In this document: one piece after another, positions 9,823 through 29,517 of the stretch
Layout: every line of letters starts with the position of its first letter
Numbering within the stretch: position 1 is the stretch's first letter
NCBI GenBank assembly: GCA_016432405.1
Contig: CP066687.1
Location: 411,040-475,039, forward strand
Source: Candidatus Giovannonibacteria bacterium
Lineage (GTDB): Bacteria; Patescibacteriota; Minisyncoccia; UBA11713; 2-01-FULL-45-33
DNA length: 64,000 bases
Direction of reading: 5' to 3'
Translations under genes and position numbers: made by a program
Notes under the pieces: generated by a model
Databases searched by the model: none
Seen by the model: the letters and a program-made list of their open reading frames with translations, nothing else
What the model was told of the DNA's origin: nothing

Positions 9823-10548
9823 TGGTCAACCTGCCAGGTTGACCAAAAAATCTTCATAATCCTTTGCTTTGCTGCTGCTTACAAACGCGCCGTACTCTTC
9901 AGAACTAGAAAATTGATCCAACAAAATAGACCTGTTTATAAAATTGCCGAATCTATTCGAACCGATATAATCTTGATAACTAGACCATGGATACTTAGAT
10001 TCTTTATTGCGCCAACCAATCAACTCTCTAGGATTGCGGTGAATATACGCAGATAAATGCAAAAGATATTCATTGGTATCAACCAATATTTTATGGCAGT
10101 GGCTGCTGAACAAGTAGCCACTGCGCTTGTGTCTAAGGTTGAAATATTTAGTGTAGCTATTTCCTAATCTGCTCATAAACTTACTAATTCCATTTTCTTG
10201 TAATTCCAGAAGCATCAAATGGTAGTGATTTGGCATCAAAACAAATCCAATAAGCTCAACGATCTGCGCATTAAAAATGTCTCGCTCAATTTCTTGAAGC
10301 GCCGACGTGCCACGTTGACCAAATTTTTTCGCTAGGCTGGAAATGTGATTGAAAAATACATTACCCTGAAGCGCGCAGAGCAAAAATAAAAATCTATTTC
10401 TGTCGTCGTCATCAGCAAAAATATCACGTTTTTCCACGCCTCTGCTAAAAATGTGGTATACCGAATGCTCGCCCTCAAAAGTTATTTTCTTGTTCATGTC
10501 GTTATATTACACCCGCAGGCACTTTTTGGTCAACCTGGCAGGTTGACG
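9823..10548. mobile_element. REP-RAYT-REP unit (family A)
   Basis: The RAYT gene is bracketed by two copies of the 25-nt palindrome TTGGTCAACCTGCCAGGTTGACCAA (9823-9847 and 10527-10548). The two copies are in mutually inverted orientation. Confidence 0.7.
9826..10497 (-). CDS. REP-associated tyrosine transposase (RAYT; IS200/IS605-like HuH Y1 domain), copy 1
   Basis: 223 aa. HuH motif PNHYHLML. Conserved GxHxxFxRGxxKRDIF N-terminus and a catalytic-Tyr region (YIHRNP). The C-terminal codons are encoded by the REP palindrome. Confidence 0.8.
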   Translation of the reverse strand: MNKKITFEGEHSVYHIFSRGVEKRDIFADDDDRNRFLFLLCALQGNVFFNHISSLAKKFGQRGTSALQEIERDIFNAQIVELIGFVLMPNHYHLMLLELQENGISKFMSRLGNSYTKYFNLRHKRSGYLFSSHCHKILVDTNEYLLHLSAYIHRNPRELIGWRNKESKYPWSSYQDYIGSNRFGNFINRSILLDQFSSSEEYGAFVSSSKAKDYEDFLVNLAG

Positions 10549-10563
10549 GTTGACCAGTTGGTC

Positions 10564-11625
10564 TCAGAAGATTTTAGCAATGTCGCGGTAGGTTATGGCA
10601 AGCATAAGGGCGATTAAAATCATAAGCCCCAAGCTGTGAGCCAAAGCGCTGGTTCTGGAAGAAATGCGCTTGCCGCGCAAGGCCTCAATCAAAAGAAAAA
10701 ATAATCTCCCGCCGTCCAAACCCGGAAACGGCAGAATATTGACTAGGGCAAGATTAACGGATAAAACGGCAATTAATATAAGGAGTACGCCGAAGCCCAG
10801 ATTGATTGCGGAAGAGGTAATGTTGAAAATTCCAACGGGACCCGCCACTTCAACAGGCAAAGCTTCTCTTTTAAAAAGGCTTTGGATAAGCCCCCACAGT
10901 CCCAAAACCGTTCCTTTTAAAATTTCCCAAGTGAACTTCGCGCCGTCTATCGGAGCCAGATACCACGGAGATTTTTTTACGCGCACAAGCCCAAGAGCAA
11001 TTCCCAACGGCCCCTCGCCTTCCGGCGGATTCTGGCGGGACAGAGCGCTGACCGCAAGCGATTTTTCTCCCCGAATCAGAGAAAGCGAGATATTTTTGCC
11101 TTGGTTTTGTTTAATAAAGTTTTGCACTTCTCCTATTTTTTGAAATCCTGGGATTTGGTCTCCTGGTATTATACCGGCGCGCTCGGCGGGTGAATCCGGG
11201 GCGATATCCATAATAATTATTTTGGCGTCGGGATAATTGCCGCTTTCTTCTTCGGAGACGGCTTGCAGGACGCCCAAACCACTGACCAAAGTAAGCGCGA
11301 AATAAGCCAAAATAATATTGGCAAATACTCCGCTGGCCAGTATCACGGCTCTTTTTGGCGCAGATTTTGAGCCGAAACTGCCCAGCTTATCGCCGGCGTC
11401 TCCTTCCTCGCCGAAAATTTTTACGAACCCGCCGAAGGGCAGAAGGTTCAAAGAAAAAAGCGTCCCGCGCTTGTCCCGCCATAGCTCCAGAATGCGCGGC
11501 GGGATTCCAAAGCCGAATTCTTCAACTTTTATTCCGAAAGCCCGCGCCGCGAAAAAATGCCCAAATTCATGGGAAAGAACCAAAATTAACAATATTGCTA
11601 TAAAAATGAATGCCGTGATTATCAT
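10564..11625 (-). CDS. rseP: RIP zinc metalloprotease RseP (site-2 protease, M50) with PDZ domain
   Basis: 353 aa. HEFGH motif in TM1, a PDZ-like middle region, and LDGG in the C-terminal TM. Confidence 0.85.
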   Translation of the reverse strand: MIITAFIFIAILLILVLSHEFGHFFAARAFGIKVEEFGFGIPPRILELWRDKRGTLFSLNLLPFGGFVKIFGEEGDAGDKLGSFGSKSAPKRAVILASGVFANIILAYFALTLVSGLGVLQAVSEEESGNYPDAKIIIMDIAPDSPAERAGIIPGDQIPGFQKIGEVQNFIKQNQGKNISLSLIRGEKSLAVSALSRQNPPEGEGPLGIALGLVRVKKSPWYLAPIDGAKFTWEILKGTVLGLWGLIQSLFKREALPVEVAGPVGIFNITSSAINLGFGVLLILIAVLSVNLALVNILPFPGLDGGRLFFLLIEALRGKRISSRTSALAHSLGLMILIALMLAITYRDIAKIF

Positions 11626-11633
11626 TGAAAATT

Positions 11634-12185
11634 CTAGATTTCCATTATCTCTTTTTCTTTTTTTTCAGAAAGTTTTTTTATTTTTTCATTGACGTTTTCA
11701 GTCATTCGCTCCATCTTTTCTTTTTGCGAATATTTTTGGGTTTCGGAAATCAATTTTGCCCGCTCCTCCTCCTGGATTGTTTTCCAAATATCATCCCTTC
11801 TTTTTCTGACTTCTATTCTTGCTTCTTCCTCTTTTTTGCCCAAGAGCTTAACAAATTCCTTCCGGCGTTCCTCCGTAAGCGCCGGGAAAACCGCTCTAAC
11901 CTGGTCCCCTTCAGAAATAATGGAAAGCCCTAAATCGGCTTTCTCCAAAGCGGCTTCTATCGCCAGGAGCAAATTTTTGTCCCACGGTTTTATGAGCACG
12001 CTCTTTGGGTCCGGCGAGGACAAAGCGGCCAAGTGCGCGAGCGGGGTCGGCGCCCCGTAAGAATCCGCCGTAATCCCTTCCAAGACGGCCGGGGACGCCC
12101 TTCCTATGCGGATTTTTTTTAACTCTTCCTCAAAATTAGCCAAAATTTTTTTAAATTCTTTTTCTTCTGCGGAAAAATCAATCAT
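11634..12185 (-). CDS. frr: Ribosome recycling factor
   Basis: 183 aa with the Frr signature RIGRASPAVLEGI...VRAVFPALTEERRKE. Confidence 0.85.
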   Translation of the reverse strand: MIDFSAEEKEFKKILANFEEELKKIRIGRASPAVLEGITADSYGAPTPLAHLAALSSPDPKSVLIKPWDKNLLLAIEAALEKADLGLSIISEGDQVRAVFPALTEERRKEFVKLLGKKEEEARIEVRKRRDDIWKTIQEEERAKLISETQKYSQKEKMERMTENVNEKIKKLSEKKEKEIMEI

Positions 12186-12790
12186 GGCGCCATATTTAAG
12201 TATTCTCCGATTAAACGTTTATTCGCCGTCGGGTCGGCGGAAAGAGCGCAGGCCCGGAGCGCTTTCTCCAATTTTAAAATATTGTCCCGGTTTAACCCGG
12301 CGCGCAGCGCATCCTCGCTGCTCATAAGCGATTTTTTGAGGCGGAGCTCAAACTCGTCTCCCCCGCTCCGCTCGGCGAACGCGGATTTTGAAAAAAATCT
12401 GAAGGCCGAAAAACGCGATTTAATCGTGAGAGGAATCGCCCGCGTGTTTTTTGTGGTCGCGATGATAATTGAGCCGGCCGGCGGCTCTTCAAGGATTTTC
12501 AGCATGGCCGGCGCGGCCTCGCGGCTTAGGTTTTCAATACTTTCCACCAGAAAAACGTTTTTGGGGCTCACAATCGGCCTTCGCGATGCCTTGGACTTAA
12601 GCGAACGCACGTCTTCTATCGTAATAGGAGCGGATTCAATTTTAAAAAAATCCGGACTTTTCTCGGCTTGTTCCCCCAAAAAACGGCCGAGCAAAAATTT
12701 TATCGCCTCGCTCTTCGCCCTCTCGTCGTTGCCGTAAAAGAGATACGCGTGATTTGGAAATTGGAAATTGGAAATTGGAAATTTCATCAT
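12182..12790 (-). CDS. holB: DNA polymerase III delta-prime-like subunit (short form)
   Basis: 202 aa. HAYLFYG P-loop-degenerate N-terminus, sensor-1-like ...NVFLVE..., and APAMLKILEEPP / TIKSRFSAFRF matching the delta-prime signature. The N-terminus contains a TTGGAAA x4 tandem repeat. Confidence 0.55.
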   Translation of the reverse strand: MMKFPISNFQFPNHAYLFYGNDERAKSEAIKFLLGRFLGEQAEKSPDFFKIESAPITIEDVRSLKSKASRRPIVSPKNVFLVESIENLSREAAPAMLKILEEPPAGSIIIATTKNTRAIPLTIKSRFSAFRFFSKSAFAERSGGDEFELRLKKSLMSSEDALRAGLNRDNILKLEKALRACALSADPTANKRLIGEYLNMAP

Positions 12791-13845: not shown

Positions 13846-15111
13846 TTACTCCACTCTTTTAATCTCCGCTCCGAGTTTGCGGAGGCGTTCGTCTATTTTT
13901 TCGTACCCGCGGTCGATTTGGTAAATGTTGCCGATTTGAGATTCCCCGTTGGCAATGAGCGCGGCCATTAGAAACGCAAGCCCAGCCCGGATATCCGGCC
14001 CCTCTAGATTCCATCCCGCTAAATTGGACGGGCCGTGCACAATTGCGCGATGAGGATCGCAAAGAGTAATACGCGCCCCCATCTTATTTAAATCTTCCAC
14101 GTAACTTAAGCGGCCTTCAAAAATAGTTTCATGTATCATGCTGGCGCCCTCCGCCTGCGTTGCAAAAACAACGTATGGCGCCTGCAAATCAGTGGCAAAA
14201 CCCGGATATTCTTTTGTTTGAATGTTAACCGCTCTCCCGACGTAACGTCGGGATTGCTTCAAAGCAAGCTCGCCATTCCCGATTTCATATTCAACTCCGG
14301 CGGCTTTTAAAACCGCAAGCAGGGCTGTAAGTTCTTCTGCCGGAAAATTTTTAATTGTCATTTCTTTTGCGGCAACAGCCCCGAGGATCGCCAAGCTCCC
14401 GGCTTCTATGCGGTCTGGCGGAGCAAAAAATGGAACTTGCCCGGAAAGCGGTTTTCCTGCACGGCCTTCTATAGTTATCGTGTGCGTGCCGGCTCCGCGG
14501 ATCTCCGCGCCGTTTTTATTCAGCCAATCTGCTAAACTCGCAATTTCCGGCTCTTCGGCGGCATTTCTTAAAACAGTCTGCCCTTTGGCTAAAATAGCCG
14601 TCATCATCAGCCCTTCGGTTCCGGTAACGCTCGGCACACGAAAAATAAAATCGCAGCCTTTAAGGCCTCGAGGCGCGCTGACTTCATAAATCGTTAAATT
14701 ATGGACGTCCGACGTCAATAGTTTACTATGGACGTCGGACGTCGATATATTAGCCCCCATTGCTTTCCAGCCGTCTAAAAAAACATCAATCGGCCGCGCG
14801 CCGATCACGCATCCTCCCGGGTGCGGAAAAGAGGTTTTGCCGAAATGCGCCAAAGCTGGCCCCACTGCCAAAATAGAAGCGCGGATTTTTTTTGCGATCT
14901 CATAATCAAATTGCCCGCCATTTACACTATCCAGAAGCTCTTTCATTCTTTTGATATCTTCAATTTCCGGAAGGTTTTGAAAAGCCGGTCCGCCAGCTGG
15001 CGGAGAAAAAAGCAGCGAGGCAGCCAGAGCCGGCAAAGACGCGTTTTTGGAGCCGGAAACCGAAATATTGCCTTCCAGCGCCTTGCCTCCTTTCACTAAA
15101 AATTTTGCCAT
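13846..15111 (-). CDS. murA: UDP-N-acetylglucosamine 1-carboxyvinyltransferase MurA. Start refined to MAKFLVKGG.
   Basis: About 421 aa. MurA N-terminus (KFLVKGGKALEGNISVSGSKNASLP), catalytic-Cys-region equivalents, and two EPSP-like domains. Contains in-frame palindromic inserts at 14699-14747. Confidence 0.9.
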   Translation of the reverse strand: MAKFLVKGGKALEGNISVSGSKNASLPALAASLLFSPPAGGPAFQNLPEIEDIKRMKELLDSVNGGQFDYEIAKKIRASILAVGPALAHFGKTSFPHPGGCVIGARPIDVFLDGWKAMGANISTSDVHSKLLTSDVHNLTIYEVSAPRGLKGCDFIFRVPSVTGTEGLMMTAILAKGQTVLRNAAEEPEIASLADWLNKNGAEIRGAGTHTITIEGRAGKPLSGQVPFFAPPDRIEAGSLAILGAVAAKEMTIKNFPAEELTALLAVLKAAGVEYEIGNGELALKQSRRYVGRAVNIQTKEYPGFATDLQAPYVVFATQAEGASMIHETIFEGRLSYVEDLNKMGARITLCDPHRAIVHGPSNLAGWNLEGPDIRAGLAFLMAALIANGESQIGNIYQIDRGYEKIDERLRKLGAEIKRVE

Positions 15112-16421: not shown

Positions 16422-16769
16422 TTAATGATTAGCCATGGTTGCTGTTATTTTTCCAAAAATTAGCGTGAGCTGCTGAGCTTCTACCCACAATTTTTTGGCA
16501 TCAGTTTCCGATTTTTTGTCAGTATTGGCAATAATTCTTAGCCAATATTTTGTTTCTTGCGCTTCTTTCTTGCAGATGTGGATTTTGTTTCTAAAATCTT
16601 TTCTTGAACTTGCCCCATTCGCTTCGCAATAATTGGCACCGACAGAAGTACCCGCCCTTACCAGCTGTGAAATCAGCGGTAAGGTTACTGGATTTTTATC
16701 TATTTTTGAAGCCAAACTTATTACGCTTTCTGCAAATTTAGCCGTTCTTTCTTCCAAATCGTAATTCAT
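16422..16769 (-). CDS. Four-helix-bundle protein (23S rRNA intervening-sequence protein family-like)
   Basis: 115 aa, all-helical. Motif SVGANYCEA...SRKDF...ICKKEAQETKYWL is typical of this family. Confidence 0.55.
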   Translation of the reverse strand: MNYDLEERTAKFAESVISLASKIDKNPVTLPLISQLVRAGTSVGANYCEANGASSRKDFRNKIHICKKEAQETKYWLRIIANTDKKSETDAKKLWVEAQQLTLIFGKITATMANH

Positions 16770-16841: not shown

Positions 16842-19800
16842 TTATTGAACCACCTCCACCGTCCTTACGGCTGTCGCGCTGTTTCCGGCGCTGTCGGTCG
16901 CGGAGTAAAGAATCGTGTGCGTGGTGGTGGTTGAGGTGTCCAGCGAAAGCCCGTCTCCTTGCGAAAGTGCCGGTCCCCCATTTAAAGAAGCAGTGTAACC
17001 GAGATTTGAATCAACGTTATCCGTGACGGTTACTCCCATATCCGCGTAACTCGCGCCCACGTTAATCGTCGCCGGGTTATTTCCCAAAATTGTGATTACC
17101 GGCGGGATAACATCGGGTGTTGAAGAAGAAACACCCGATGTTGAGGAGCCGGCGGCGCCGCACGCTCCTGCTTCCGATTTCAAAACCCCATTCTCCGAAA
17201 ACACGCAGACCGGCCCGCCGGTGGCGCGGTCATAAATTGTGAATCCCTGCGGCCCGGTTACGGTGAGTTTTTGCGTTTCAATTTCCTGAACAATCAATTT
17301 TCCGTTTTCATCTATACTCCACAATCCGGAGGCCGACAAAATCTTGCGGACGTTTATGATGTCGTTATTTTGCAAATCCAAGAGACCGGTCGTTCCCAAA
17401 GCAAGCCCTGAAATCTTCGCGTTCAATTCCTGAATCGCTTTTGCCAAAACCGCGGTCAGGTTCGCGTATTTAACATTGACCGGCGTAGAGGACGCGTCAA
17501 GCGTGACCAGCCGCGGGTCAATGCCGAAAACTTCTTCCGCGATTAAACCGACCTGTTCTCCCTTAACTCCGATGTCGTCATTATAAAGGAACGATACCGG
17601 GCGCAAATTTAATACCGTTTCAAGCGCTCCGGCGCCAAGCGAATTAATGTCGTGCTTGAAACGTTGCGAAGAACCCGTGCAGGCCGCGCCATCGCTATAT
17701 GTGACTTCCTTGTTCGCGGAGAGACAGAGAGCTCCGGCTCCGGCTCCGGCCGTAAGCCCGGAAAACGCCGCCGTCCCCGCAACCGACAAAGTCCTCCACG
17801 GCGTCGTGCTTGCGATGCCGAAATCTCCTCCGTTATTAATATATGATTTGTCGGTGCTCAAAACTGGATCGGAAACAATTTTAATCACAGTATCGCCAGC
17901 TTCATTAGTCATTGAAAAACTTGCTTGCTGATTACTGTCCATGCCGAGCTGATGACTAACTGAGCCGCTTGGTCTAACTATATTAACACCGAGAGGTCTT
18001 GGTGATGTTCCTAGACCTAACTGAATTTCAAGCGCGCTTTCACTTGTCGGCACACGGCCAATTCCTACTCTTTTGGTCACGCCGTCAACCGAGATAATTG
18101 GGGGGCCTACAGTTGATGAGGTTGCGATGCTCCACGCGTTAATTACTTGCGGAATTGTTGAGGTCGCGGATTTTTGATAGGAGAAAGTCAGCGCGGCCGC
18201 GGTGCTTGAAGAATAGGTGATGAGGTTGGAGTCAAGATAAGCGTTCCCCTGCACGGAAAGCAAACTTGCCGGACTCGTCGTCCCGATGCCGACGTTGCCG
18301 GTGGTTGCTGCAACAACCAAATGGTCTGCCACGCCACCTTCTCTTATGCCAAAGTTGGTATCTGAACTAGAGTTGCTAACATTGCGACCAATGAACCAAT
18401 CTGGCCCGTCGCCAGTATCAAAATACAAACTCACACTTGCCCCAGCGCCGGTGACCGTGTTGGAAAGTCGTATTTGTGCGGGATCAGTTGTGCCCGCGTC
18501 AATGTTTAATGAATAGGTCCCGGGGTTTGCCACCCCAATACCCACATTCCCCGTAAAATATCCATTTCCCGCAACTGAAAAGAGCGAAGCCGGACTCGTC
18601 GTCCCGATGCCGACGTTGCCGCCTGTTGTTATTACAAATTCATTACCTGTAAAATCAGCGTCCTCACTAATCTTAAAGGAATCCGAATCTGAATTATCTA
18701 TGCCTGCATACCATGAAATGACATCAGGCAATTGCCAACGCAATGTCGCATCCCCCGTCCCAGCTTGTTGAATTTTAATTCCCGCCGAACCAGTAAGGGC
18801 ATCATTATTTCTTACAACGAGAGACTGGTCTGGACTCGTCGTCCCAATGCCGACGTTGCCGCTTGTTTGCTGGACCACGAATTGGCTTGTGCCGATAGTG
18901 AAGCCACCTGTCCCGAATGTACTCGTCGCTGTGCCACTCACCGCGAGCGTTCCCGTCGCCGTAAGACCCGCCACAGAAAGATTGCTGGAGAACAGCCCGG
19001 CTCCATGCACCGAAAGCAAACTCCCCGGACTCGTCGTCCCGATGCCGACGTTGCCGTTATCAATTACACTCAAAACCTCCGTAATATTTACCAAGGCGGT
19101 ACTGGCATAACCAAGACTTATTCTAGAATTAGAGCCAGTAGAAAAATTTTCAATTCCTACACGAGTACTACCGCCAGCGTTCATCGCAATCCCATTCCCC
19201 GCGGCACCATTAGAGAAATAAATCTTTGATGCCGCTCCGCCAATTTCCACTTTAGTCGTAGGATTCGCTAACCCGATGCCGACATTGCCGCCATTAAGCA
19301 GAGTTAATACAGGCGGAGTTGAAGTGGCATACGCATCAGTTGATGTTCCCACATAGAGATTCCCTCCCATTGACGATAAGAGCCAATGTTTCAGGTTTGC
19401 TCCGGCAGAAGTATCGGAAAGCGCGAAAGAAGGCCTCGTCCCCGCCGCCTGCAGGAGCCAGTTCGGCGTCGTCGTCCCGATGCCGACGTTGCCACTGATT
19501 ATTGCTCCATTAGTTGGTGGAGTGGCTCCCCCGTCAGCGTAAGTTCCCACAGCTATGCCCTGATAGCCGACAGAAAGTGAGGGGGCTGTAACTCCATTAC
19601 TTCCGGTACCTTTAAGGTCTATTCGAACAGGACCCGAATCCGAAGCGCTGGCTCCGCTCTGTACAAACCGTATTTGTGCGTACCCGTCACCCTCACTAAA
19701 AAATAGATTATTAGCATTTACACCAAGAGCTCGTATCACACCGAGTTCGTCTCCACTGGCAGTCTGAGAAAGCGTGTCTACGCTTGTTCCAACAGATTTT

Positions 19801-22800
19801 CTGAAAGACAGAGTGCCACTATGAGTTAGAGTGGCGCTGTAAGCAGATATTGTTTGGACTGTATCGGCAGATGCTCCAGCCAGTTCTAGTAATGAACTCG
19901 GGCTAGCGTCCCCGATGCCGATTCTGCCGTTTTGATTTACTCCGCCAACCACAAATGACGGCGTTGAACTTCCGGTATTTGATATCACGAACGAATTTGT
20001 CTCCGTTCCCTGTTCAACCGACAACAACCCCCACGGACTCGTCGTCCCGATGCCGACGTTGCCGCCTTCTGCAATAGACATCCTTATGGCACTTGAGCCG
20101 CCGCCTATTGGGTCTGTATAAAAGTTCAATACATTATTGGTCTCGTCCCACTGAATGTAGGCGCGGTCCACGCCATTTTCATTGAAGCGGATATTTGAAC
20201 TCCCCTCCGCACCATCTAAAATCAATTTATCGGTGTTGGCCGAATTAAAGATATGCAAGGCGTTAGCCGGACTCATCGTCCCGATGCCGACGTTGCCGTT
20301 TTCCGCCACATACAAGCTGTTGGCGGTTGCTCCGCGATTTACAACAAAAGCGGTGTTGTTGCCAACAGTAAGCCCTCCAGAAATAGTGGAAGTGGCGGTG
20401 GTGGAAGTCGCGTTGAAAATAGGGATATTGAGAGTCCCGTAGCTTGTGATGCTTGAATTAAACAATCCTCCGCCCGCCACCGAAAGCAAAGCCCCCGGAC
20501 TCGTCGTCCCGATGCCGACGTTGCCTCCGCTTAACAATGTCATCACAATAGCATCATTGATAGCAAATTGAATTGGGTAAGTGCCAGTTGATTGAAGCAC
20601 ACTTGCGTATGCAGATGCTCCTGTTAGTAATCCTCCAGTAGTGCTCCAATTTTTACCCAACTCAAATGTACCGCCAGTATTTATAATATCGATATATGCA
20701 TAGTTTGTGCCTGTAGTTGATGTGATTTTCATCCTTCCAGTTTCACTTTGAATATCAAGTGGCAGTGTTGGATTCGTCGTCCCGATGCCGACGTTACCGC
20801 CGGATGTAGCCAGATACGTTGAGCCGGTGGTGGTTAATTGCGTCCCCGAAGCATTTCCAAAAGTTAGAAGCCCAGTAACATTCAGCGTTGAAGTCGCCGT
20901 TATCGCCCCGCCGAAGAATCCCGTGCCGGAGAAGTATCCGCTTCCCTGCACCGAGAGCAATGCCCCCGGACTCGTCGTCCCGATGCCGACGTTGCCGGCA
21001 GCATTTATCGTTATAGCCGGTGTTGTAGCTAACGCTCCGAGAGGCGCGGTATAGAACTTCAAACCAGCATCGTTGTTTGTGGCACTTTGGATAAAACCGC
21101 TTATCCGACCCATTGGTAAGACATCACTCCGCTGTTTGAAGTCTATGCTTATCTCGTCATTTGCAAGCATCTGGAGGTCGGAATATGACATACTGAGCAA
21201 AGTAATTTGTGTTGCGGCTCTATTTCCCCCTACCACATCTAATTTATACAAAGGCCCCGTCGTCCCGATGCCGACGTTGCCGCCATTAGTAACTATGAAA
21301 TTCGTTGCCGTTGAAGAGCCAACCACGAATGAAGGGACACCCGCGCCAAGAGCGTTCGGATTTACCGAAAGAAGCCCCCACGGCGAAGTTGATGCGATGC
21401 CGACGTTGCCGGTGGAGGTGACATTAAAAAGCGAAGAGTCAGATGAAGAAAGGACGCGGAAAAGGTCGGCGGATTGGCTGGTAACTCCCTTGATTGTTAA
21501 AGGAATGGCGGTGGTGGAAGTAGCTCCGATTGTGAGCACGGAAAGTCCGGAGTGAGTAGTGGTGCCGAAAGCGGCCTGTCCCGCGGCCGAGAAGACAAAT
21601 CTGGTTGTGGGCTCGCTGGCGCCATCCTGAAGCCGCAAAAGGTCTCCCGAAACGGTGGAGTTCCACATTGTGTATGCGGCGCCGGTAGTGGTGGCCAAAT
21701 GAGTAATTCTTCCCTTAAAAATATGGCTGTCGGCGTTGGGGGCGTCTCCCATTGTAAATTGATTTTCAACAGTGAAGTTGGATGCGGTGGTGGAAGCCAA
21801 AGTTGTGCCGCCAACGGTGGTCAGTCCATTTGCAAAAACGTCCCCGTCAGCATCAACAAGGAAGCGAACCGCTCCGCCGACAGCTATGCCCAGAAGATTG
21901 GTATCCGCCGCCGCCGAAGCCGGATTGATGACCACAACCGAGTCCGTGACCGCGGAGTTGGCAACGCCAACAGCCCAGGTGCCGAAAGTGTGCGAAACCG
22001 TCGGGCTTTTTGTGACTAAAAGCTGTTCGGTGAGAGTCGTGGTGGAGTTTACATTCATTGAAGCGCCGGAGACGTTAAGCCCGCCGCTCGCAAGTATGTC
22101 TCCCGAAACCGAAAAAGTTGCGCTGGGAGTCGTGGTGCCTATGCCAATTCTGTAGTTTTTTGTGTCAAAAGTAAGAAAAGGAGTGACGGAAGTGGAAGTG
22201 GCGAAAGAGAAAGCGTTGATTAAGGAAGAGGCGATGGTGGTGGTGGCCTGGTTGAAGAAAGCGAGATTTCCGTAAAGAGTCATGTCCCCCGTAAGTTGGA
22301 GGGTGGAAGAAGCGTAAACGGCGCTGGCGAAGTCGGAGCGGCCGGAGACGGTAAGAGCGCCGATGGAAGCGGAAGTTGAGTTAAGCGAGGTTGAGGTCAG
22401 AGAAGCCAAGCCCGATACCGCTCCGGCTGAAGTTACGTTCCAGACGTTTGAGGTTATGGATACGTTTTTGCCTTCAGCCCCAAGAGTCACGTTTCCTGAA
22501 GCGTTTAAATTGCCGCCGGTGGAAATTCCGTTGGAGAAGTCCCCGAAAGAAGCCGAGACGCCGGAGCCGGTCTGGGGAGGAGACGAAGCGTAAGGGCCGG
22601 GGATTGAAGTCGTGAGAAAGACAACCGGATTTTGGACCTGGTTGGAAGGAAGCCGTTTTTCCAAAGCGGCAAGAGAAAGCTGGACCTGTGCCAAGACGGC
22701 TTGGTTGAGAGAAGAGAGGCGCTGGTCAAGCTCTGTTTGGGAGATGCCTGCCTTGCCGGCAGGCAGGCCGGAGACGACGCGTTCAACTACTCCGACGCTC

Positions 22801-23987
22801 GGCTTTGCCGAGGTCGGAGCCCCGACCAAAGCGTCGGGGCGGGATGGAGGTGTGGAAGTTGATTCTCCAAATGTGATAATTTTACTTCCATCTTGAGGTA
22901 AATTGGGAGCCGGAGGAGTTTCCGCGGCTTCAGGCGGTTTAACCGAGAAAAAATCCATTGCCACCAGCTTCAGGTCGCCCCCCAAAGACGCTATGTATCC
23001 CCGCCAGCCGAGGACATTGTTTATAAATCTGTCTTTAATATCCGAGAGAGAGAGTTTGGCGTCTTTAAAAGTAAAGGGCAAAGAAAAGGTAGCTCCGACG
23101 TCAGGAAGTCGGAGTCCCGACCAAAGCGTCGGGGGAAGCGAGAATTCGGGCAAAGCAAGAGCCAGCGAGGGGAGTTTGATTTCCGGCCAAGCGAAAAGTT
23201 CTGTGAGAGGTTGGAAATTTGGAAGTTGAAAAGTCGGAAGTTTGAAAGTAAGTTGAGGCAGTTTTGGTTTTGGTAAAGTTAATTTTGGAAGTTTGATTTC
23301 GGGCAGGGAGAGGGCTAGAGAGGCTCGGTCTTTGATGCTTTGAAAAACGTTTCCGAGCACTGCTTTAATGTTAACCTCACCTCCCAACCCCCTCTCCTTA
23401 CGAAGGAGAGGGGGCGGAGGGGGTGAGGTAAGGGTCTCAAAAAATCCGGCTGCAAATTTTTTCGCAGAGACAATAGAATTCCCAATTTCATCCGCGACGA
23501 CGAAAATCTCACCTGCCAACTCTTTCACGGAGACATTAATATTTTCGGTTGCATCCGCAATAGAATTTTTGATTGCGCCCGCGTTATAAAAAATCAGCAC
23601 GGCAATCAGTACTGACGAGAGAGAAGCCGCTCCCAGCGACCATTGCTTCAGAGAAAATTTCGGAAACCGAATTTTTGGAAATTGAAAGTATTCTTTCTCT
23701 TTCTCCCCCAAAATCGCCTTGTCCCACTCATCTGTTGTATGAAAGATTTCCGGCTTTGTAAGGATAACTTGCGGCTCTGTTTTCTCTTGCGTCCGCAAGA
23801 TGGATTTTTTGTAATCCAAAATAGATTTTTCGGAAACCATCCAATCGGTGCCGAATTTTTTTCCTTTTACTTTTTCCTCGCGGCAAAGCTGTCCGACATA
23901 GATGCGTGTATAGCCGCAAAGAGCCGCGGCCTCGGAAGCCGTGATATATTTTTCCCCTTCTAAGATAATTTCACGAGAATCTTTCAT
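16842..23987 (-). CDS. Giant (2381 aa) membrane-anchored fibre-like surface protein: N-terminal HTH, TM, Pro-rich linker, GNVGIGTTSP repeats, C-terminal intramolecular-chaperone (peptidase S74-like) domain, Ig-like tail
   Basis: Single uninterrupted ORF. The N-terminal ITASEAAALCGYTRIYVGQLCREEKV is an HTH. A TM segment lies at about aa 110-135. The LPKLTLPKPKLPQLTFKLPTF Pro-rich repeats follow. There are more than 12 G(G)NVGIGTTSPxxLLSV modules. The C-terminus (SSQRFKHDINSL...LRPVSFLY...GLIAEEV) matches the auto-cleaving tailspike chaperone domain. The final approximately 120 aa (PVITILGNNPATINVGASYADMGVTVTDNVD) resemble a bacterial Ig-like/DUF5011-type domain. Confidence 0.8.
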   Translation of the reverse strand: MKDSREIILEGEKYITASEAAALCGYTRIYVGQLCREEKVKGKKFGTDWMVSEKSILDYKKSILRTQEKTEPQVILTKPEIFHTTDEWDKAILGEKEKEYFQFPKIRFPKFSLKQWSLGAASLSSVLIAVLIFYNAGAIKNSIADATENINVSVKELAGEIFVVADEIGNSIVSAKKFAAGFFETLTSPPPPPLLRKERGLGGEVNIKAVLGNVFQSIKDRASLALSLPEIKLPKLTLPKPKLPQLTFKLPTFQLPNFQPLTELFAWPEIKLPSLALALPEFSLPPTLWSGLRLPDVGATFSLPFTFKDAKLSLSDIKDRFINNVLGWRGYIASLGGDLKLVAMDFFSVKPPEAAETPPAPNLPQDGSKIITFGESTSTPPSRPDALVGAPTSAKPSVGVVERVVSGLPAGKAGISQTELDQRLSSLNQAVLAQVQLSLAALEKRLPSNQVQNPVVFLTTSIPGPYASSPPQTGSGVSASFGDFSNGISTGGNLNASGNVTLGAEGKNVSITSNVWNVTSAGAVSGLASLTSTSLNSTSASIGALTVSGRSDFASAVYASSTLQLTGDMTLYGNLAFFNQATTTIASSLINAFSFATSTSVTPFLTFDTKNYRIGIGTTTPSATFSVSGDILASGGLNVSGASMNVNSTTTLTEQLLVTKSPTVSHTFGTWAVGVANSAVTDSVVVINPASAAADTNLLGIAVGGAVRFLVDADGDVFANGLTTVGGTTLASTTASNFTVENQFTMGDAPNADSHIFKGRITHLATTTGAAYTMWNSTVSGDLLRLQDGASEPTTRFVFSAAGQAAFGTTTHSGLSVLTIGATSTTAIPLTIKGVTSQSADLFRVLSSSDSSLFNVTSTGNVGIASTSPWGLLSVNPNALGAGVPSFVVGSSTATNFIVTNGGNVGIGTTGPLYKLDVVGGNRAATQITLLSMSYSDLQMLANDEISIDFKQRSDVLPMGRISGFIQSATNNDAGLKFYTAPLGALATTPAITINAAGNVGIGTTSPGALLSVQGSGYFSGTGFFGGAITATSTLNVTGLLTFGNASGTQLTTTGSTYLATSGGNVGIGTTNPTLPLDIQSETGRMKITSTTGTNYAYIDIINTGGTFELGKNWSTTGGLLTGASAYASVLQSTGTYPIQFAINDAIVMTLLSGGNVGIGTTSPGALLSVAGGGLFNSSITSYGTLNIPIFNATSTTATSTISGGLTVGNNTAFVVNRGATANSLYVAENGNVGIGTMSPANALHIFNSANTDKLILDGAEGSSNIRFNENGVDRAYIQWDETNNVLNFYTDPIGGGSSAIRMSIAEGGNVGIGTTSPWGLLSVEQGTETNSFVISNTGSSTPSFVVGGVNQNGRIGIGDASPSSLLELAGASADTVQTISAYSATLTHSGTLSFRKSVGTSVDTLSQTASGDELGVIRALGVNANNLFFSEGDGYAQIRFVQSGASASDSGPVRIDLKGTGSNGVTAPSLSVGYQGIAVGTYADGGATPPTNGAIISGNVGIGTTTPNWLLQAAGTRPSFALSDTSAGANLKHWLLSSMGGNLYVGTSTDAYATSTPPVLTLLNGGNVGIGLANPTTKVEIGGAASKIYFSNGAAGNGIAMNAGGSTRVGIENFSTGSNSRISLGYASTALVNITEVLSVIDNGNVGIGTTSPGSLLSVHGAGLFSSNLSVAGLTATGTLAVSGTATSTFGTGGFTIGTSQFVVQQTSGNVGIGTTSPDQSLVVRNNDALTGSAGIKIQQAGTGDATLRWQLPDVISWYAGIDNSDSDSFKISEDADFTGNEFVITTGGNVGIGTTSPASLFSVAGNGYFTGNVGIGVANPGTYSLNIDAGTTDPAQIRLSNTVTGAGASVSLYFDTGDGPDWFIGRNVSNSSSDTNFGIREGGVADHLVVAATTGNVGIGTTSPASLLSVQGNAYLDSNLITYSSSTAAALTFSYQKSATSTIPQVINAWSIATSSTVGPPIISVDGVTKRVGIGRVPTSESALEIQLGLGTSPRPLGVNIVRPSGSVSHQLGMDSNQQASFSMTNEAGDTVIKIVSDPVLSTDKSYINNGGDFGIASTTPWRTLSVAGTAAFSGLTAGAGAGALCLSANKEVTYSDGAACTGSSQRFKHDINSLGAGALETVLNLRPVSFLYNDDIGVKGEQVGLIAEEVFGIDPRLVTLDASSTPVNVKYANLTAVLAKAIQELNAKISGLALGTTGLLDLQNNDIINVRKILSASGLWSIDENGKLIVQEIETQKLTVTGPQGFTIYDRATGGPVCVFSENGVLKSEAGACGAAGSSTSGVSSSTPDVIPPVITILGNNPATINVGASYADMGVTVTDNVDSNLGYTASLNGGPALSQGDGLSLDTSTTTTHTILYSATDSAGNSATAVRTVEVVQ
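18276..21420. repeat. Intragenic dispersed repeat, about 24-29 nt conserved between copies (GGACTCGTCGTCCCGATGCCGACGTTGCC and variants), at least 12 copies
   Basis: Copies sit at about 18276, 18590, 18830, 19030, 19460, 20033, 20268, 20500, 20773, 20960, 21250 and 21385. They are spaced irregularly at 130-600 nt. On the minus strand each encodes GNVGIGTTSP. Confidence 0.8.
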
Positions 23988-24092: not shown

Positions 24093-24165
24093 GTATTAAA
24101 AAAATTTTAAATTTAAAATTTTAAATTTAAAATTAAGTTTTAATAAACGTTATTAAACCTTGATA

Positions 24166-24894
24166 CTAACTAGCTTTATTTGCCTGTCGCCAGGCGGCTA
24201 TTTTTTTATGATTCCCGGAAAGAAGGATTTTGGGGACTTTATATGTTTTCCCCTTCCATTTGAATATTTCCGGCCTTGTGTAGGCCGGCACGCCGATGCC
24301 GTGCCTTTTTTCTTCAAGCGATTCGGACTTGCCCAAAACCCCGGGAATTTTTCTTAAAACTGCGTCAACAATAACCATCGCGGGGAGTTCCCCGCCGGTG
24401 AGGACATAGGGACCTATGCTCAAATTTTCAATTTTTAACCCGCCTGCCGGACGGGCAGGTTTCCAATTTTCAATTATTGATTTAACGCGCTCGTCAATGC
24501 CTTCATAGCGGCCGCAGATAAAAATAATCCGTTTATATTTCTTGGCGAAATCTCCGGCCATTTTAGAATTAAATTGTTTTCCGGAAGCGGAGAGTAAAAT
24601 TATCAAGACGTCCGACGTCTTCTCTGACTTAGACGTCGGACGTCTAAGTTGAAGAATTGAATCAAGAGCTTTGGCAAGCGGCTCAATTTTCAATACCATC
24701 CCCGGGCCGCCGCCGTAGGGCCGGTCGTCAACCCGCCCAAAGCTACGCATTGAGGCGGGCAAGAAATTTCTTAAATCCCAGATTTTTATTTTTGCCAATT
24801 TCTTTTTTTGGGCGCGCGAAATTATGGACTCGTTAAAATAATCCCTAAAAACTTTCGGAAAAATTGTGATGATATCGAAACGCAAGTTTGACAT
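24166..24894 (-). CDS. trmD: tRNA (guanine37-N1)-methyltransferase TrmD. Start refined to MSNLRFDII.
   Basis: About 243 aa with a TrmD SPOUT fold (RFDIITIFP...GRYEGIDERV...GGELPAMV). The ORF-track N-terminal extension is encoded by a REP-B palindrome. In-frame GACGTC(C/G)GACGTC palindromes lie at 24606-24645. Confidence 0.85.
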   Translation of the reverse strand: MSNLRFDIITIFPKVFRDYFNESIISRAQKKKLAKIKIWDLRNFLPASMRSFGRVDDRPYGGGPGMVLKIEPLAKALDSILQLRRPTSKSEKTSDVLIILLSASGKQFNSKMAGDFAKKYKRIIFICGRYEGIDERVKSIIENWKPARPAGGLKIENLSIGPYVLTGGELPAMVIVDAVLRKIPGVLGKSESLEEKRHGIGVPAYTRPEIFKWKGKTYKVPKILLSGNHKKIAAWRQANKAS

Positions 24895-24912: not shown

Positions 24913-24933
24913 CTTAGCAATCCGATTGCTAAG
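24913..24933. repeat. REP family B palindrome CTTAGCAATC(C/G)GATTGCTAAG
   Basis: 21-nt palindrome between trmD and RAYT2. Other copies: 25391-25411 (inside RAYT2 coding, in-frame LLSNRIAKL), 25605-25625 (variant at the RAYT2 5' end) and 48691-48715 (25-nt perfect). Confidence 0.8.
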
Positions 24934-24940: not shown

Positions 24941-25588
24941 CTATTCACATAACAAATCCTCCATTTCTTTAAATAGCCGCTTTCGCTCCAAAATATCGTT
25001 GAGGGAGCTTTCCGCAAACTTCCTATATTCATCGGCGCTATCAAACTGTTCAAGAATAATAGCCGATCTGCAAAGGGAAGATTTAGATTTTTGCTTAGAA
25101 AAATATTCTTCCCAACTTGATCTAAACTTTTTGTTGCCTTTAATTCTGTGCGCTTTATTGTTTAGGTTTACGTATGCGCTCAAATGCAATAAATACTCGT
25201 TTGAATTGATATGTTTAGCTTTGAATTTTCCTTGGAGAAGAACGCCTGTTCTGTGATATTTAAAATTGAAATGTTGAGTAAACCCGGTCCCTATTCTTCG
25301 CATATATTCACTGATCCCATTGTCTACCCTTTGGCGCAAAATCATATGATAATGATTGGGGTTAAGACAAAAACACACGACGTCCACCAACTTAGCAATC
25401 CGATTGCTAAGTAGAAGTTTTCTAAAAGAATGTTCAAAAATACTGCCAATTGGTTTTACGGAATTAAAATCTTCCATGCCTTGAAGAAATCTTTCGAAAT
25501 CATAACCGTCCAAAAATATATCCCGTTTATCTACACCGCGATTATAAACGTGATAAAACTCTCCGTTTGTAAATCTAAATTTACGCAT
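24941..25588 (-). CDS. REP-associated tyrosine transposase (RAYT), copy 2. Start refined to MRKFRFTNGEFYHVYNRG.
   Basis: HuH motif NPNHYHMIL. Conserved N-terminal HVYNRGVDKRDIF and catalytic region YVNLN. Flanked by, and containing, REP-B. Confidence 0.75.
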   Translation of the reverse strand: MRKFRFTNGEFYHVYNRGVDKRDIFLDGYDFERFLQGMEDFNSVKPIGSIFEHSFRKLLLSNRIAKLVDVVCFCLNPNHYHMILRQRVDNGISEYMRRIGTGFTQHFNFKYHRTGVLLQGKFKAKHINSNEYLLHLSAYVNLNNKAHRIKGNKKFRSSWEEYFSKQKSKSSLCRSAIILEQFDSADEYRKFAESSLNDILERKRLFKEMEDLLCE

Positions 25589-25627
25589 AATTAAAACAAT
25601 AGCACTAAGCAATCGGATTGCCAAGTA

Positions 25628-25666
25628 AACCAACGGCTCGCATCCAAAAAATGCGAGCCGTTGGTT
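25628..25666. terminator. Perfect 16-bp-stem hairpin with an A/T-rich loop (possible bidirectional terminator)
   Basis: AACCAACGGCTCGCAT-CCAAAAA-ATGCGAGCCGTTGGTT. It lies between RAYT2 and the KH-protein gene. Confidence 0.4.
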
Positions 25667-26017: not shown

Positions 26018-26074
26018 TGTAGCAAAGTCCGTTCTTTAGCCCTGTAATATCCGAATTTTCGACCATTTTCGGCG

Positions 26075-27277: not shown

Positions 27278-27346
27278 AAATCTCCCTCCTTTTTGCCAAA
27301 GTAAACTATCAAAAACATATCATTGGAAAAATATTATGTCAAGTAA

Positions 27347-28114
27347 CTATTTTAGATATTTATATTTATTAAGCGCGTGCTCTTCCAATGTCTTGGCGTA
27401 ATGCGTTTTGCCGCCTTTATCCGTAAGGTAATAAAAATATTCGGAGCCAGTCGGACGCAAAGCCGCCAAAATCGCGTCCATCCCGGGGTTGGAAATCGGC
27501 CCGGGCGGCAAACCGCGATAACGGTAGGTATTGTAGGAAGAATCGTATTTTAAGTCCGCCTCCGTCAGCTCGCCGCTCGGTTTGCCCAAAACGTAAGTAA
27601 GCGCGGCGTCAACATTAAGCCCCATGCCAAGCCGAAGCCGCTTCCACAAAATCCCCGCTACTATTTTCCTGTCCGCGGTGCTTTTAACTTCTTCTTCCAA
27701 AAGCGAGGCCATTATTATAATCTGCTCCAAGGTCTTGCCGGAGCTCTTTGCCTCCGCCAAAATCTCGGGGGTTATCTTCTTATTGAAATTATCCCTCATT
27801 TTGGCTATCACCTGCTCCGGCTTCGCGGTTTTGTAAAATCTATAAGTGTCCGGGAACAAATATCCTTCGTGCTTTTGGGCCTCCAAAACAAATTCGTCTT
27901 TTGAAAAAAGCCCCGCTTTCTCAAGCGCTTCCCCTATCTGGCGGACGCTGTATCCTTCCGGAATGGTCACGGCCGCCTCATTGGAAACCATTCTTTCTTT
28001 TTCTTTGTATTTTATGTAAGCCGGAAATTTTCCCAAAAAGAAAATACCCGAAAGGAGAAGGAAGAGCGCGAGGGCCGCGGTTAAAAGTTTTTTAATGTCA
28101 CCGTTTTGAATCAT
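27347..28114 (-). CDS. mltG: Endolytic murein transglycosylase MltG (YceG-like)
   Basis: 255 aa. N-terminal TM and YceG-like core (EGYLFPDTYRF...SIIEKE-like...YNTY...GLPPGPISNPG). Confidence 0.8.
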   Translation of the reverse strand: MIQNGDIKKLLTAALALFLLLSGIFFLGKFPAYIKYKEKERMVSNEAAVTIPEGYSVRQIGEALEKAGLFSKDEFVLEAQKHEGYLFPDTYRFYKTAKPEQVIAKMRDNFNKKITPEILAEAKSSGKTLEQIIIMASLLEEEVKSTADRKIVAGILWKRLRLGMGLNVDAALTYVLGKPSGELTEADLKYDSSYNTYRYRGLPPGPISNPGMDAILAALRPTGSEYFYYLTDKGGKTHYAKTLEEHALNKYKYLK

Positions 28115-28844
28115 TGTCGGAAATTAAAGGCACAAACACAAAACCGGGATGCTCGGTCGCATCAAATTTATGCGCTGTATTAGCGGGCGCGGTTTTATTT
28201 TTTTTAATAAACCCACACACCAAACAGTTTGGTGTGTGGGTAAATTCAAAAATACTGCCGCCGATAGGGGCGACGATTTTGCCGCCGATTTTTAATTGAT
28301 TCCGCCAAGTAGCCGGCAAATGCCCCAAACCCAAATGCCCCAAACCTGGTTTGGGGCTAGCGGAGGCCGCGGCGATTATTTTATCAAAGCCACCTATTTT
28401 TTGAGCAATTTCAGGGAGACCCGGAACGCCGTCCTGGCAATAAAACCTTACCTCCCCCCTCCCTTCCTTATTAAGGAGGGGATTTAAGGGGAGGTTAAAA
28501 AACTCCTCAAAATTTTCTTTTCCGAATTTACAAAGTTCCGGCACCCTTTCAATCGCGTAGACATTTGCGCCTACATAGGCCAAAAGCGCCGTCTGCCAGC
28601 CGGAGCCGTAGCCAACCTCCATAATATTATCCCCGGACTCCGGGTTTAAAAGCTCAAGCATAAAAGCCACCGTCCACGGCTGGGAAATCGTCTGCCCCTC
28701 ACCTATCGCAAGCGGCTCATCAATATATGCGTAATCCTCAAATTCTTTTGGCACAAAATTTTTTCTATCAACTGCCCGGAACGCCTCAATCAGCCGAGGT
28801 GTTTTCAGAACTCCTCTTTTGATTAAATTGTCAGCTAAAGCCAT
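28098..28844 (-). CDS. pcm: Protein-L-isoaspartate O-methyltransferase with in-frame palindromic inserts. Start refined to MALADNLIK.
   Basis: Pcm motifs: SQPWTVAFMLELL, EVGYGSGWQTALLA and C-terminal VFVPL. Contains two palindromes in-frame (28212-28240 and 28337-28355). Confidence 0.75.
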   Translation of the reverse strand: MALADNLIKRGVLKTPRLIEAFRAVDRKNFVPKEFEDYAYIDEPLAIGEGQTISQPWTVAFMLELLNPESGDNIMEVGYGSGWQTALLAYVGANVYAIERVPELCKFGKENFEEFFNLPLNPLLNKEGRGEVRFYCQDGVPGLPEIAQKIGGFDKIIAAASASPKPGLGHLGLGHLPATWRNQLKIGGKIVAPIGGSIFEFTHTPNCLVCGFIKKNKTAPANTAHKFDATEHPGFVFVPLISDNDSKR

Positions 28845-28853
28845 ACCAAATGT

Positions 28854-28870
28854 CCGAAACTTAGTTTCGG
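28854..28870. repeat. REP family C hairpin CCGAAAC-TTAG-TTTCGG
   Basis: Copies at 28854-28870 (between pcm and RAYT3), 29526-29542 (other side of RAYT3) and 29327-29344 (inside RAYT3, in-frame DLNLVSDI). Confidence 0.75.
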
Positions 28871-29517
28871 TCATCTAATGTATAATTATCATTTCTGGCG
28901 GTTTCAATAAAACGTCTCACCTCTCTTCTATCAGAATCAAAATAATTGAGCAGGAAATCTGTCTTCAACAACTCCCCCCACCTGTTTTCGCCTATGTAAT
29001 CCTGGAAGCTGGACCAAGGATATTTATGCTCCCGTCTTTTCCAACCCTTGATATCTTTGGGATTAAGATGCGCATATGCCAGTGCTCGCAACAAATAATT
29101 ATCGCCGTTTAAATATTTAGCATCAAAAGTTCTTTCAAAAACATGCCCGCGTCTTTTATACTTCAAATTAAAGTATTTTGCATAGCTAACAAGTAGTTTG
29201 TGCATAAATAAAGAAACGTTGCCGTCTTCTTTTTCACGCAAAATTAAATGAAAGTGATTCGGCATAAAACAAAAGCCGACTATATCTATTAAATTATCTC
29301 CGATATCTATCTTTCTATTCCTTATGTCCGAAACTAAGTTTAGGTCAGGAAAGCGGTCCAGGTGTGAAATATCGCGTTTTCCATTAGCCGCAAATAAAGT
29401 AGTTAAAAATCGTTTGTAGTCGCGGTCGGTACCAAACAAAGCCACATCGCCAATGGCGTGAGAATAAACATGATAATGTTCCCCTTCCGTAAAAGCGTAC
29501 TTACGCATAATGCTCAT
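28861..29517 (-). CDS. REP-associated tyrosine transposase (RAYT), copy 3
   Basis: 218 aa. HuH motif PNHFHLIL. N-terminal EGEHYHVYSH and catalytic region YAHLNP. Flanked by REP-C hairpins. Confidence 0.75.
   Translation of the reverse strand: MSIMRKYAFTEGEHYHVYSHAIGDVALFGTDRDYKRFLTTLFAANGKRDISHLDRFPDLNLVSDIRNRKIDIGDNLIDIVGFCFMPNHFHLILREKEDGNVSLFMHKLLVSYAKYFNLKYKRRGHVFERTFDAKYLNGDNYLLRALAYAHLNPKDIKGWKRREHKYPWSSFQDYIGENRWGELLKTDFLLNYFDSDRREVRRFIETARNDNYTLDDRN

Follow-up and report, generated by a model that had tools for sequence, protein, structure and literature searches.

Three genes resembling REP-associated tyrosine transposases (RAYTs; REP, repetitive extragenic palindrome) were analyzed in a 64,000-nucleotide (nt) stretch of DNA from Candidatus Giovannonibacteria, a bacterium of the candidate phyla radiation (CPR); this whole stretch is referred to as the window. 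Each gene lies between copies of its own palindrome family and carries a further copy of that palindrome, intact or decayed, in frame within its coding sequence (CDS). An earlier note on this DNA had listed the three genes and their palindromes, and all of them were recovered as open reading frames (ORFs) and by palindrome search. The genes are as follows; in comparisons between loci, gene 1 is designated W1, and copies 1 to 3 stand for genes 1 to 3.

9826..10497, minus strand: RAYT-like gene 1, an ORF of 223 amino acids (aa) with the motifs NHYH and YIHRNP
24941..25588, minus strand: RAYT-like gene 2, an ORF of 215 aa with the motifs NHYH and YVNLNN
28861..29517, minus strand: RAYT-like gene 3, an ORF of 218 aa counted from 29517, with the motifs NHFH and YAHLNP

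The start of gene 3 is probably the second ATG, at 29508, which would give a protein of 215 aa beginning with MRKYAF (compare MRKFRF in copy 2). Proteins 2 and 3 were 38–39% identical to protein 1, and tblastn gave 34–38% identity for all pairs, in agreement with the 30–40% estimated previously. Against Pfam PF01797 (Y1_Tnp; cutoff, 23 bits), genes 1 and 3 scored 29.4 and 27.1 bits, both above the cutoff, and gene 2 scored 21 bits, just under it. With the NCBIfam model NF047646, scores of 38.9, 25.9, and 33.2 bits were obtained for genes 1, 2, and 3; these are far below the equivalog cutoff of 80 bits, which places the three genes outside the E. coli-type equivalog. No Pfam match to a helix-turn-helix (HTH) or DnaA_C domain was found in the window RAYT-like proteins at E values up to 0.01. 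The two histidines of the HuH motif and the catalytic tyrosine (H79, H81, and Y139) were invariant across 68 aligned sequences and are intact in all three window genes, and the Y motif of gene 2 ends in NN, not NP. The gene 2 protein is 100% identical to P0003, which is named as a Candidatus Giovannonibacteria transposase.

AlphaFold2 (AF2) models were obtained with a predicted local distance difference test score (pLDDT) of 85 and a predicted template modelling score (pTM) of 0.82 for gene 2, and with a pLDDT of 91 for gene 3. The top Foldseek match of the gene 2 model in the Protein Data Bank was 4ER8 (E value, 2.5e-6; TMt, 0.65), the E. coli RAYT bound to a REP hairpin, followed by the TnpA proteins of IS608 and ISDra2. 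A sequence-profile search of solved structures gave marginal ISDra2 matches only (E value, 0.04), and 4ER8 was reached by the fold search. These comparisons support the assignment of the three genes as RAYT-like Y1 HUH nucleases.

The palindromes at these genes fall into three families, A (TTGGTCAACCTGSCAGGTTGACCAA), B (CTTAGCAATCSGATTGCTAAG), and C (CCGAAACTWAGTTTCGG), with the following copies.

9822..9846, no strand: family A, overlapping the stop codon of gene 1; DNA hairpin of -11 kcal/mol, z -4.25
10526..10550, no strand: family A, upstream copy of gene 1, with 3 mismatches
10298..10322, minus strand: decayed internal copy of family A, of which the left arm remains; in frame and encoding FGQRGTSA(L)
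24913..24933, no strand: family B, downstream of gene 2 and 19 nt before trmD; hairpin z -4.1
25605..25625, no strand: family B, upstream copy of gene 2, with 2 mismatches and the centre base flipped
25390..25412, minus strand: family B inside the gene 2 CDS, in frame and encoding LLSNRIAKL; perfect 11-bp stem, z -4.9
48691..48715, no strand: family B, solo and intergenic; 12-bp stem
28854..28870, no strand: family C, overlapping both the gene 3 stop codon and the pcm start; hairpin z -5.3
29526..29542, no strand: family C, upstream copy of gene 3; palindrome match
29328..29344, minus strand: family C inside the gene 3 CDS, in frame and encoding DLNLVSD(I); weak hairpin, z -1.2

The search with the family B sequence itself matched positions 25391–25411 in the gene 2 CDS, perfectly, and 48693–48713 at the solo copy. 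Shuffled sequences yielded 0.00 matches to family A, and the numbers expected by chance per window were 0.01 for family B (three copies at gene 2 and one solo) and 0.02 for family C (three copies at gene 3). The pairing of each gene with a family of its own, as the earlier note proposed, is confirmed, and the peptides LLSNRIAKL, DLNLVSDI, and FGQRGTSAL had been read correctly. The same note gave each gene an internal copy, that of gene 1 as a degenerate half-REP. The copy is intact in gene 2; the copy in gene 3 is weakened, with 1–2 mismatches, one uncompensated stem mismatch, and a flipped centre, and that in gene 1 retains the left arm only, with 5 of 25 positions mismatched to the flank copy and no fold left (z +0.9). 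Folding as single-stranded DNA (ssDNA) showed that only the gene 2 copy is an intact strong hairpin among the three internal copies; the downstream copies all fold well. A scan of positions 9000–30500 with Rfam at gathering thresholds gave no match, so the hairpins are not explained by a known RNA family.

The distance from the start of the internal palindrome to the first His of the HuH motif is 19 codons in copy 2, 29 in copy 3, and 31 in copy 1, against the roughly 20–30 codons of the earlier note; the copies are cognate and in frame, as claimed. All three fall in the linker between the N-terminal helix and the strand preceding HuH. In the gene 2 model, LLSNRIAKL lies in a low-confidence loop (residues 55–67; pLDDT below 50 at 56–62), which connects a short helix with the strand just ahead of the HuH strand. 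In the gene 3 model, the residues encoded by the REP fold as a short helix within this linker. As the codon distances differ, it is the linker that is shared and not the residue, and the conserved position proposed earlier stands in that looser sense, on the alignment and on the AF2 models. The inserted peptides are not conserved residues of REP-free homologues. The orthologous locus L002 retains TGGTCAACGTGGCAGGTTAGCCA at the alignment column of the gene 1 remnant, with 2 mismatches from its own flank copy; this intact counterpart identifies the remnant as a true decayed REP. The internal palindrome of gene 3 is perfect in its orthologue L027. A second hairpin in the gene 1 CDS (10096–10124; 9-bp stem, 11-nt loop), located between HuH and Y, is partly present in L001 and is not found in L002 or other relatives; it was rejected as a REP because it is lineage-specific and not a member of the REP family.

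For the distribution of this arrangement, the window and 80 loci with a homologue, drawn from CPR and from a handful of further metagenome-assembled genomes (MAGs), were screened for hairpins repeated around or inside the gene. An upstream and downstream pair of the same palindrome was found at 46 loci. A cognate internal copy was present in 31 of these paired loci at a mismatch of 30% or less, and in 23 of the 46 at 15% or less. Among 2070 non-cognate pairings of probe and CDS, 11 reached 15% mismatch, all of them between close relatives sharing the palindrome. The palindromes were fully different between loci, yet related along the protein tree (e.g., TGTCAAACA.., TGTGCAAAG.., TGAGCAACA.., and TGGTCAAC...).

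Clusters 1, 2, 3, 7, 9, and 10 have their internal copies in a single variable region of the protein alignment, about 40 columns ahead of HuH; those of the copy-2 clade were about 20 columns nearer to HuH, or past the Y motif (L068, L076, L080, and L123). Measured in nucleotides, the start of the insertion is 57–120 nt upstream of HuH or, for those beyond the Y motif, about 210 nt downstream of it. Locus L097 (10063–10644) has two cognate internal REPs, one before HuH and one after Y. In L054, two adjacent inverted copies start 88 and 63 nt before HuH, and this doublet forms a 44-nt perfect REPIN-like palindrome within the CDS. The Microgenomates-type cluster had flank copies only, several other loci also had no internal copy, and the internal copy was decayed in W1/L001, L005, and L019. 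Judged from these positions, the internal insertion has arisen more than once, in a shared tolerant linker and not at one residue. The self-embedded cognate REP is a family-wide feature in CPR.

Conservation of the internal copy was observed at the DNA level. Four copy-2 orthologues share 70–74% protein identity, and in their 770-nt nucleotide alignment only 51% of the columns do not vary. The internal REP (10 + 15 nt) and the downstream REP (11 + 10 nt) make up its longest invariant runs, each interrupted solely at the centre base by a G/C flip, with an Arg/Pro swap. Since the DNA is invariant despite this swap, the constraint acts on the DNA and not on the peptide. Between L068 and L076 (dS approximately 1), the inner stem and loop have changed in parallel in all three copies; a description of this turnover as rapid was toned down because of the dS value, the concerted change being real and not necessarily fast. 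At the 31 loci with three copies, internal-to-flank similarity equaled flank-to-flank similarity. Stem mismatches at these loci were 2.29 for the internal copies versus 1.03 and 1.13 for the flank copies (p 0.0005), roughly a twofold excess that points to weaker constraint on the internal copy.

The genes themselves are syntenic with their orthologues. The closest genomic locus to gene 1 is L001, in a Giovannonibacteria MAG (96% identity), and both L001 and L002 occupy the same rseP-proS site as in the window. The gene 2 orthologue L096 is found between KH/rpsP and trmD, and the gene 3 orthologue L027 adjoins pcm and mltG, in both cases as in the window. The ratio of nonsynonymous to synonymous substitution rates (dN/dS) was 0.07–0.16 over six orthologue pairs (0.11 for gene 1 versus L001, 0.16 for gene 3 versus L027), denoting purifying selection. 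The window RAYT-like genes are stable, functional, and low in copy number, as would be expected of RAYTs and not of insertion sequences. At L005 (MFIU01000002.1), a copy-1-type RAYT with a different palindrome adjoins the KH/rpsP genes that lie upstream of copy 2 in the window, which suggests replacement or re-use of the KH/rpsP site.

Family B palindromes were also found away from RAYT-like genes. Searched for exactly in metagenome contigs, family B matched 53 times, at 41 distinct sites, or 45 sites with the window copies included; these come from contigs of several related organisms as well as from the window, and their number is not a per-genome copy number. The flanks of the 45 sites define a symmetric unit of about 27 nt, yCA-CTTAGCAATC-S-GATTGCTAAG-TGr, with no conserved sequence outside the unit and no GTAG tag or GT[AG]G guide; no GTAG was found at the window copies of families A and C either. 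In relatives, family B copies occur in frame in Pfam-named ORFs for argS, dnaG, tsaD, an NAD-epimerase, a ROK kinase, and a TP_methylase, where the solo copies encode LSN[RP]IAK or LAI[GR]LLS. The dnaG genes carry either one copy or a tandem inverted pair 25 nt apart. Examples within contigs L081–L123 are L093:311, L089:2149, L100:7360/7385, and L082:1832. The argS copy was observed at the same site in two diverged orthologues whose flanks are only about 60% identical.

Counted over the window, 19 palindromes are perfect and have a stem of 9 bp or more, versus about 1.3 expected from shuffles. Those lying in frame within genes, with stems of 9–15 bp, are listed below.

24627-24649: in trmD
28337-28357 and 28211-28241: in pcm
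14235-14253: in murA
23388-23414: in the gene for a 2381-aa protein
57106-57136: in a 445-aa ORF

The trmD palindrome (ACTTAGACGTCGGACGTCTAAGT) is a family B variant with the common outer stem, and the pcm palindrome at 28337 corresponds to an 11-aa insertion relative to the L027 orthologue. On these comparisons, in-frame REP insertion is a general habit of the lineage. The length of the inserted unit was not obtained from the one- and two-copy dnaG alleles or from the pcm insertion, their boundaries being blurred by neighbouring indels and partial duplications. A PLL[RN]KE[RG]G peptide is repeated in pcm and in the giant 2381-aa protein.

Several further features of the window were recorded. 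The intergenic region 48485–48763 contains, next to the solo family B copy, a loopless perfect palindrome with a 20-bp stem (48638–48677) and a CCGCC..AAATCTGC motif present as a direct repeat on both sides. A stem-loop at 25628–25666 (16-bp stem, 7-nt loop) separates the KH-domain gene from the upstream REP of gene 2 and is likely the terminator of the rpsP-KH operon. The spacer from the giant gene to trmD has a 32-nt A/T-only palindrome (AATTTTAAATTTAAAATTTTAAATTTAAAATT) at 24103–24134. The giant 2381-aa ORF itself (16842–23987) has many GGNVGIGTTSP-like repeats and is preceded by a small gene at 16422–16769. A 659-aa ORF at 29874–31853 contains a run of 13 prolines, repeated Cys-rich C..YC....DEC[VI]AFA modules, and a QQYQQQYQQQYQ stretch.

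The interpretation to which we give slightly better than an even chance is that the three loci are REPtron-like units in which the internal copy is a passenger. Each unit would consist of a vertically inherited, single-copy Y1 HUH nuclease gene bracketed by its own near-perfect palindrome. By analogy to E. coli TnpAREP and to the TnpA of IS200/IS605, the enzyme would recognize the palindrome as an ssDNA hairpin and would cut and rejoin DNA beside it; we infer such recognition from the 4ER8-like fold and from the co-variation of enzyme and palindrome. The REPs would be small, symmetric, dispersed units, often tolerated in frame within coding sequences, and the copy inside the RAYT gene would be an insertion into a variable linker that the fold tolerates. 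The enzyme may prefer targets close to its own gene, with donor copies on either side, so that an internal copy would be common and always cognate; bracketed by donors, the RAYT gene would be the most exposed and favoured target in cis. The internal copy would be kept identical to the flanks by a process homogenizing the whole REP family, either RAYT-dependent replacement or conversion that goes on at persistent sites, or selection driven by recognition. Its identity would not be owed to any value of the peptide, and the copy would decay where homogenizing lapses, as in copy 1. Such a history would account for the cognate specificity, the repeated gains, the tandem and flipped copies, the uniformity of DNA shared with argS and dnaG, and the decay in some lineages. 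The in-frame copies in other genes of the window and of relatives, the weaker constraint on the internal copy, and the published reading of REPs inside tnpAREP genes as tolerated insertions (Quentin et al. 2018) also favour it. The self-targeting put forward in the earlier note holds in the sense that the gene has been struck by its own REP family.

Several points weigh against this interpretation. An internal copy is present in nearly every member of several clusters and in all copy-2 clade members examined, and selection for the internal copy would explain this enrichment as well as a cis bias. No empty site or excision product was seen in the loci compared, and mobility, unit length, and cis preference are therefore putative. 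The exact-match search of metagenome contigs sees only perfect copies, which makes the uniformity of the family partly an ascertainment effect. In the 64 kb of the window a solo copy was seen for family B only, so that dispersal of families A and C is putative.

A possible alternative, although to our minds a doubtful one, is that the internal REP is a selected self-target, in keeping with the regulatory role suggested in the earlier note. The RAYT would bind the hairpin, or cut and reseal it, in the coding strand or mRNA of its own gene and would thereby limit its own expression or activity. The high prevalence of a strictly cognate copy agrees with this, as do the independent gains at three positions, the presence of at least one copy in every copy-2 clade member examined, and the conservation of nucleotides while the peptide varies. 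The upstream palindromes of the three window genes are also in suggestive places: each contains a -35-like hexamer, and a -10 hexamer ends 1–8 nt before the ATG.

10533-10504, minus strand: gene 1 promoter-like sequence TTGACC-18-TAATAT, ending 6 nt before the ATG; TTGACC is the right arm of the palindrome
25624-25596, minus strand: gene 2 promoter-like sequence TTGGCA-17-TATTGT, overlapping the upstream palindrome
29546-29518, minus strand: gene 3 promoter-like sequence TTGACC-17-AATAAT, overlapping the upstream palindrome

The spacing of the -10 hexamers suggests leaderless transcripts at the three RAYT genes. Overlap of the upstream palindrome with a promoter-like sequence was seen at 13 of the 46 loci, versus 3% of shuffles, and with the enzyme's putative site over a promoter-like sequence, binding there would affect expression. 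The upstream palindrome as a general supplier of the -35 box was rejected, the overlap occurring in all three window genes but at 13 of 46 loci only.

Against a selected self-target, the internal copy is absent in the Microgenomates-type cluster and several loci and decayed in W1/L001, L005, and L019, and genes of this kind, including W1/L001 and L043/L044 of cluster 5, still have dN/dS values of 0.07–0.16. The internal hairpins are less perfect than the flank hairpins, only one of the three in the window still folds, and their orientation is random. Moreover, the same REP is equally conserved in argS and dnaG of other organisms, where no RAYT regulation is at stake. That the nuclease throttles itself through a target in its coding strand or transcript would explain the convergent placement at three gene positions and the invariance of the DNA with a free peptide; this we hold to be improbable. 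In a related reading, the CPR REPs may be a protein-remodelling system acting in frame, similar to the Rickettsia palindromic elements (RPEs), for which the mobilizing enzyme can be named.

It is very unlikely that each cassette of about 700 bp is an IS200-like insertion sequence with the outer hairpins as its left and right ends and the internal hairpin serving its transposition or second-strand machinery. The cassette sizes (689–729 bp) fit, the proteins are related in fold to the TnpA transposases of IS608 and ISDra2, and the other-clade RAYT beside KH/rpsP in L005 hints at occasional movement or replacement. However, the paralogues are only 38% identical, with no near-identical copies, the orthologues are syntenic across genera, and dozens of sites carry the palindrome by itself. 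In place of Y...Q, the Y motif reads Y..N[PN] (Quentin et al. 2018, Table 1; PMC6006769). The end hairpins are identical and, as read from the loop at the 46 loci, randomly oriented (26 same versus 20 inverted), whereas IS200/IS605 ends are fixed; the idea that the three copies follow a set orientation code was rejected on this randomness. With their near-identical copies, Y...Q motif, and fixed end hairpins, IS200/IS605 elements are matched by the window loci in size only.

Still less can be said for the palindromes as duplex operators or promoter elements for a dimeric regulator, or as bidirectional -35 boxes, which we regard as most improbable; the internal copy would in that case drive an internal or antisense promoter. 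TTGACA-like hexamers are present on both strands in many palindromes, and upstream copies do overlap promoter-like sites, but, as mentioned, at a minority of loci. Arms of 10–15 bp set 1–3 nt apart are what is usual in REPs that form hairpins, not in operators, the in-frame dispersal in unrelated genes and the tandem inverted doublets do not fit, and no regulator gene is associated with the loci. Chance or protein-coding constraint, for which nothing speaks except that family C is short (17 nt), has next to no probability and was ruled out by the shuffle expectations (0.00–0.02 matches per window), by cognate matches far above non-cognate ones, and by DNA that is invariant in copy-2 orthologues where peptides differ between clades and allow an Arg/Pro swap.

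RAYT/REP systems have been studied almost wholly in Proteobacteria and Cyanobacteria. The CPR loci provide a natural series for the co-evolution of REP specificity and enzyme, for asking whether a transposase-derived nuclease targets its own gene, and for the extent of REP-shaped protein loops in reduced genomes, where palindromes lie in frame in essential genes (argS, dnaG, tsaD, trmD, and pcm) of very small genomes. For annotation, odd short peptides in CPR housekeeping proteins may be REP-encoded.

The best structural match, E. coli TnpAREP (4ER8), resembles the window genes also in being encoded by a gene flanked by REPs, and is 14% identical in sequence to the window protein. The REPs of E. 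coli are imperfect, bulged, GTAG-tagged, extragenic, and present in hundreds of copies, unlike CPR REPs, and the E. coli gene, unlike the CPR genes, has no internal REP. The E. coli TnpAREP and REP-BIME (bacterial interspersed mosaic element) system was reportedly studied by Ton-Hoang and by Messing, both in 2012, and by Corneloup in 2021. Passages of PMC8266576 describe E. coli TnpAREP as processing cognate single-stranded REP hairpins and as co-evolving with the REPs.

Intragenic REPs are known in many genes, and their description recalls the RPEs (Di Nocera et al. 2013, PMC3733652), which a passage of that paper credits to Ogata (2000); Nunvar et al. (2010) do not mention intragenic copies. 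The RPEs and the intragenic GTAG/CGTC REPs resemble the CPR units in lying in frame in housekeeping genes of small genomes, with short peptides tolerated (PMC3733652). The CPR units differ in having a cognate RAYT-like gene, which they flank and enter, and in having no GTAG/CGTC tags. RPEs are roughly 100–150 bp long; the CPR units, at about 21–33 nt, are much shorter.

Both the presence of three co-resident RAYT/REP systems and that of a REP inside its own transposase gene had been taken as unusual; the former is normal, and the latter has been described before. A genome may carry several tnpAREP genes, each with its own REP family, and this is normal (Quentin et al. 2018, PMC6006769, section 12). 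In the same work, REPs within the tnpAREP gene, with the frame kept and generally between HuH and Y, are the hallmark and unique feature of TnpAY1 subclass 2.4 (Bertels group 4), and were read by the authors as tolerated insertions in a peripheral region. CPR or Patescibacteria were not found in the text and two supplementary files of PMC6006769, and our literature search found no paper linking RAYTs to them.

Subclass 2.4 and the CPR genes are alike in having cognate flanking REPs and an in-frame internal REP, in the location of the insertion in a variable peripheral part of the protein, and in low-copy, divergent paralogues. They differ in motifs, with NH[IFV]H, WQ, and YIxNNP in subclass 2.4 versus NH[YF]H, no WQ, and Y[IVA]H[LR]N[PN] in the window, and in the insertion, which is between HuH and Y in subclass 2.4 and before HuH or after Y in CPR. 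The CPR REPs are perfect and symmetric, without GT[AG]G feet, unlike those of subclass 2.4. The consensus of the CPR family (NH[YF]H, LFQG, Y.HLNP, and an SS tail in the 68-sequence alignment) instead fits the signature of subclass 2.1 (Bertels group 1; TIRYT-like), namely NH[YF]H, FQ, Y[IV]HLNP, an SS tail, and more than 200 aa; this fit was found by inspection against Table 1 of PMC6006769 only and not with subclass hidden Markov models, and is to be taken as provisional. Subclass 2.1 is reported without REPs, some members having terminal inverted repeats, whereas the CPR genes have flanking and internal palindromes, and its HTH-like C-terminal domain is without a Pfam HTH counterpart in the CPR genes at the E values given above. 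A RAYT family resembling a REP-less subclass thus has clear cognate palindromes, which co-vary at three sites per locus in dozens of lineages. The phenomenon of a self-embedded REP is known; what differs here are the subclass motifs, the insertion position, the type of REP, and the phylum.

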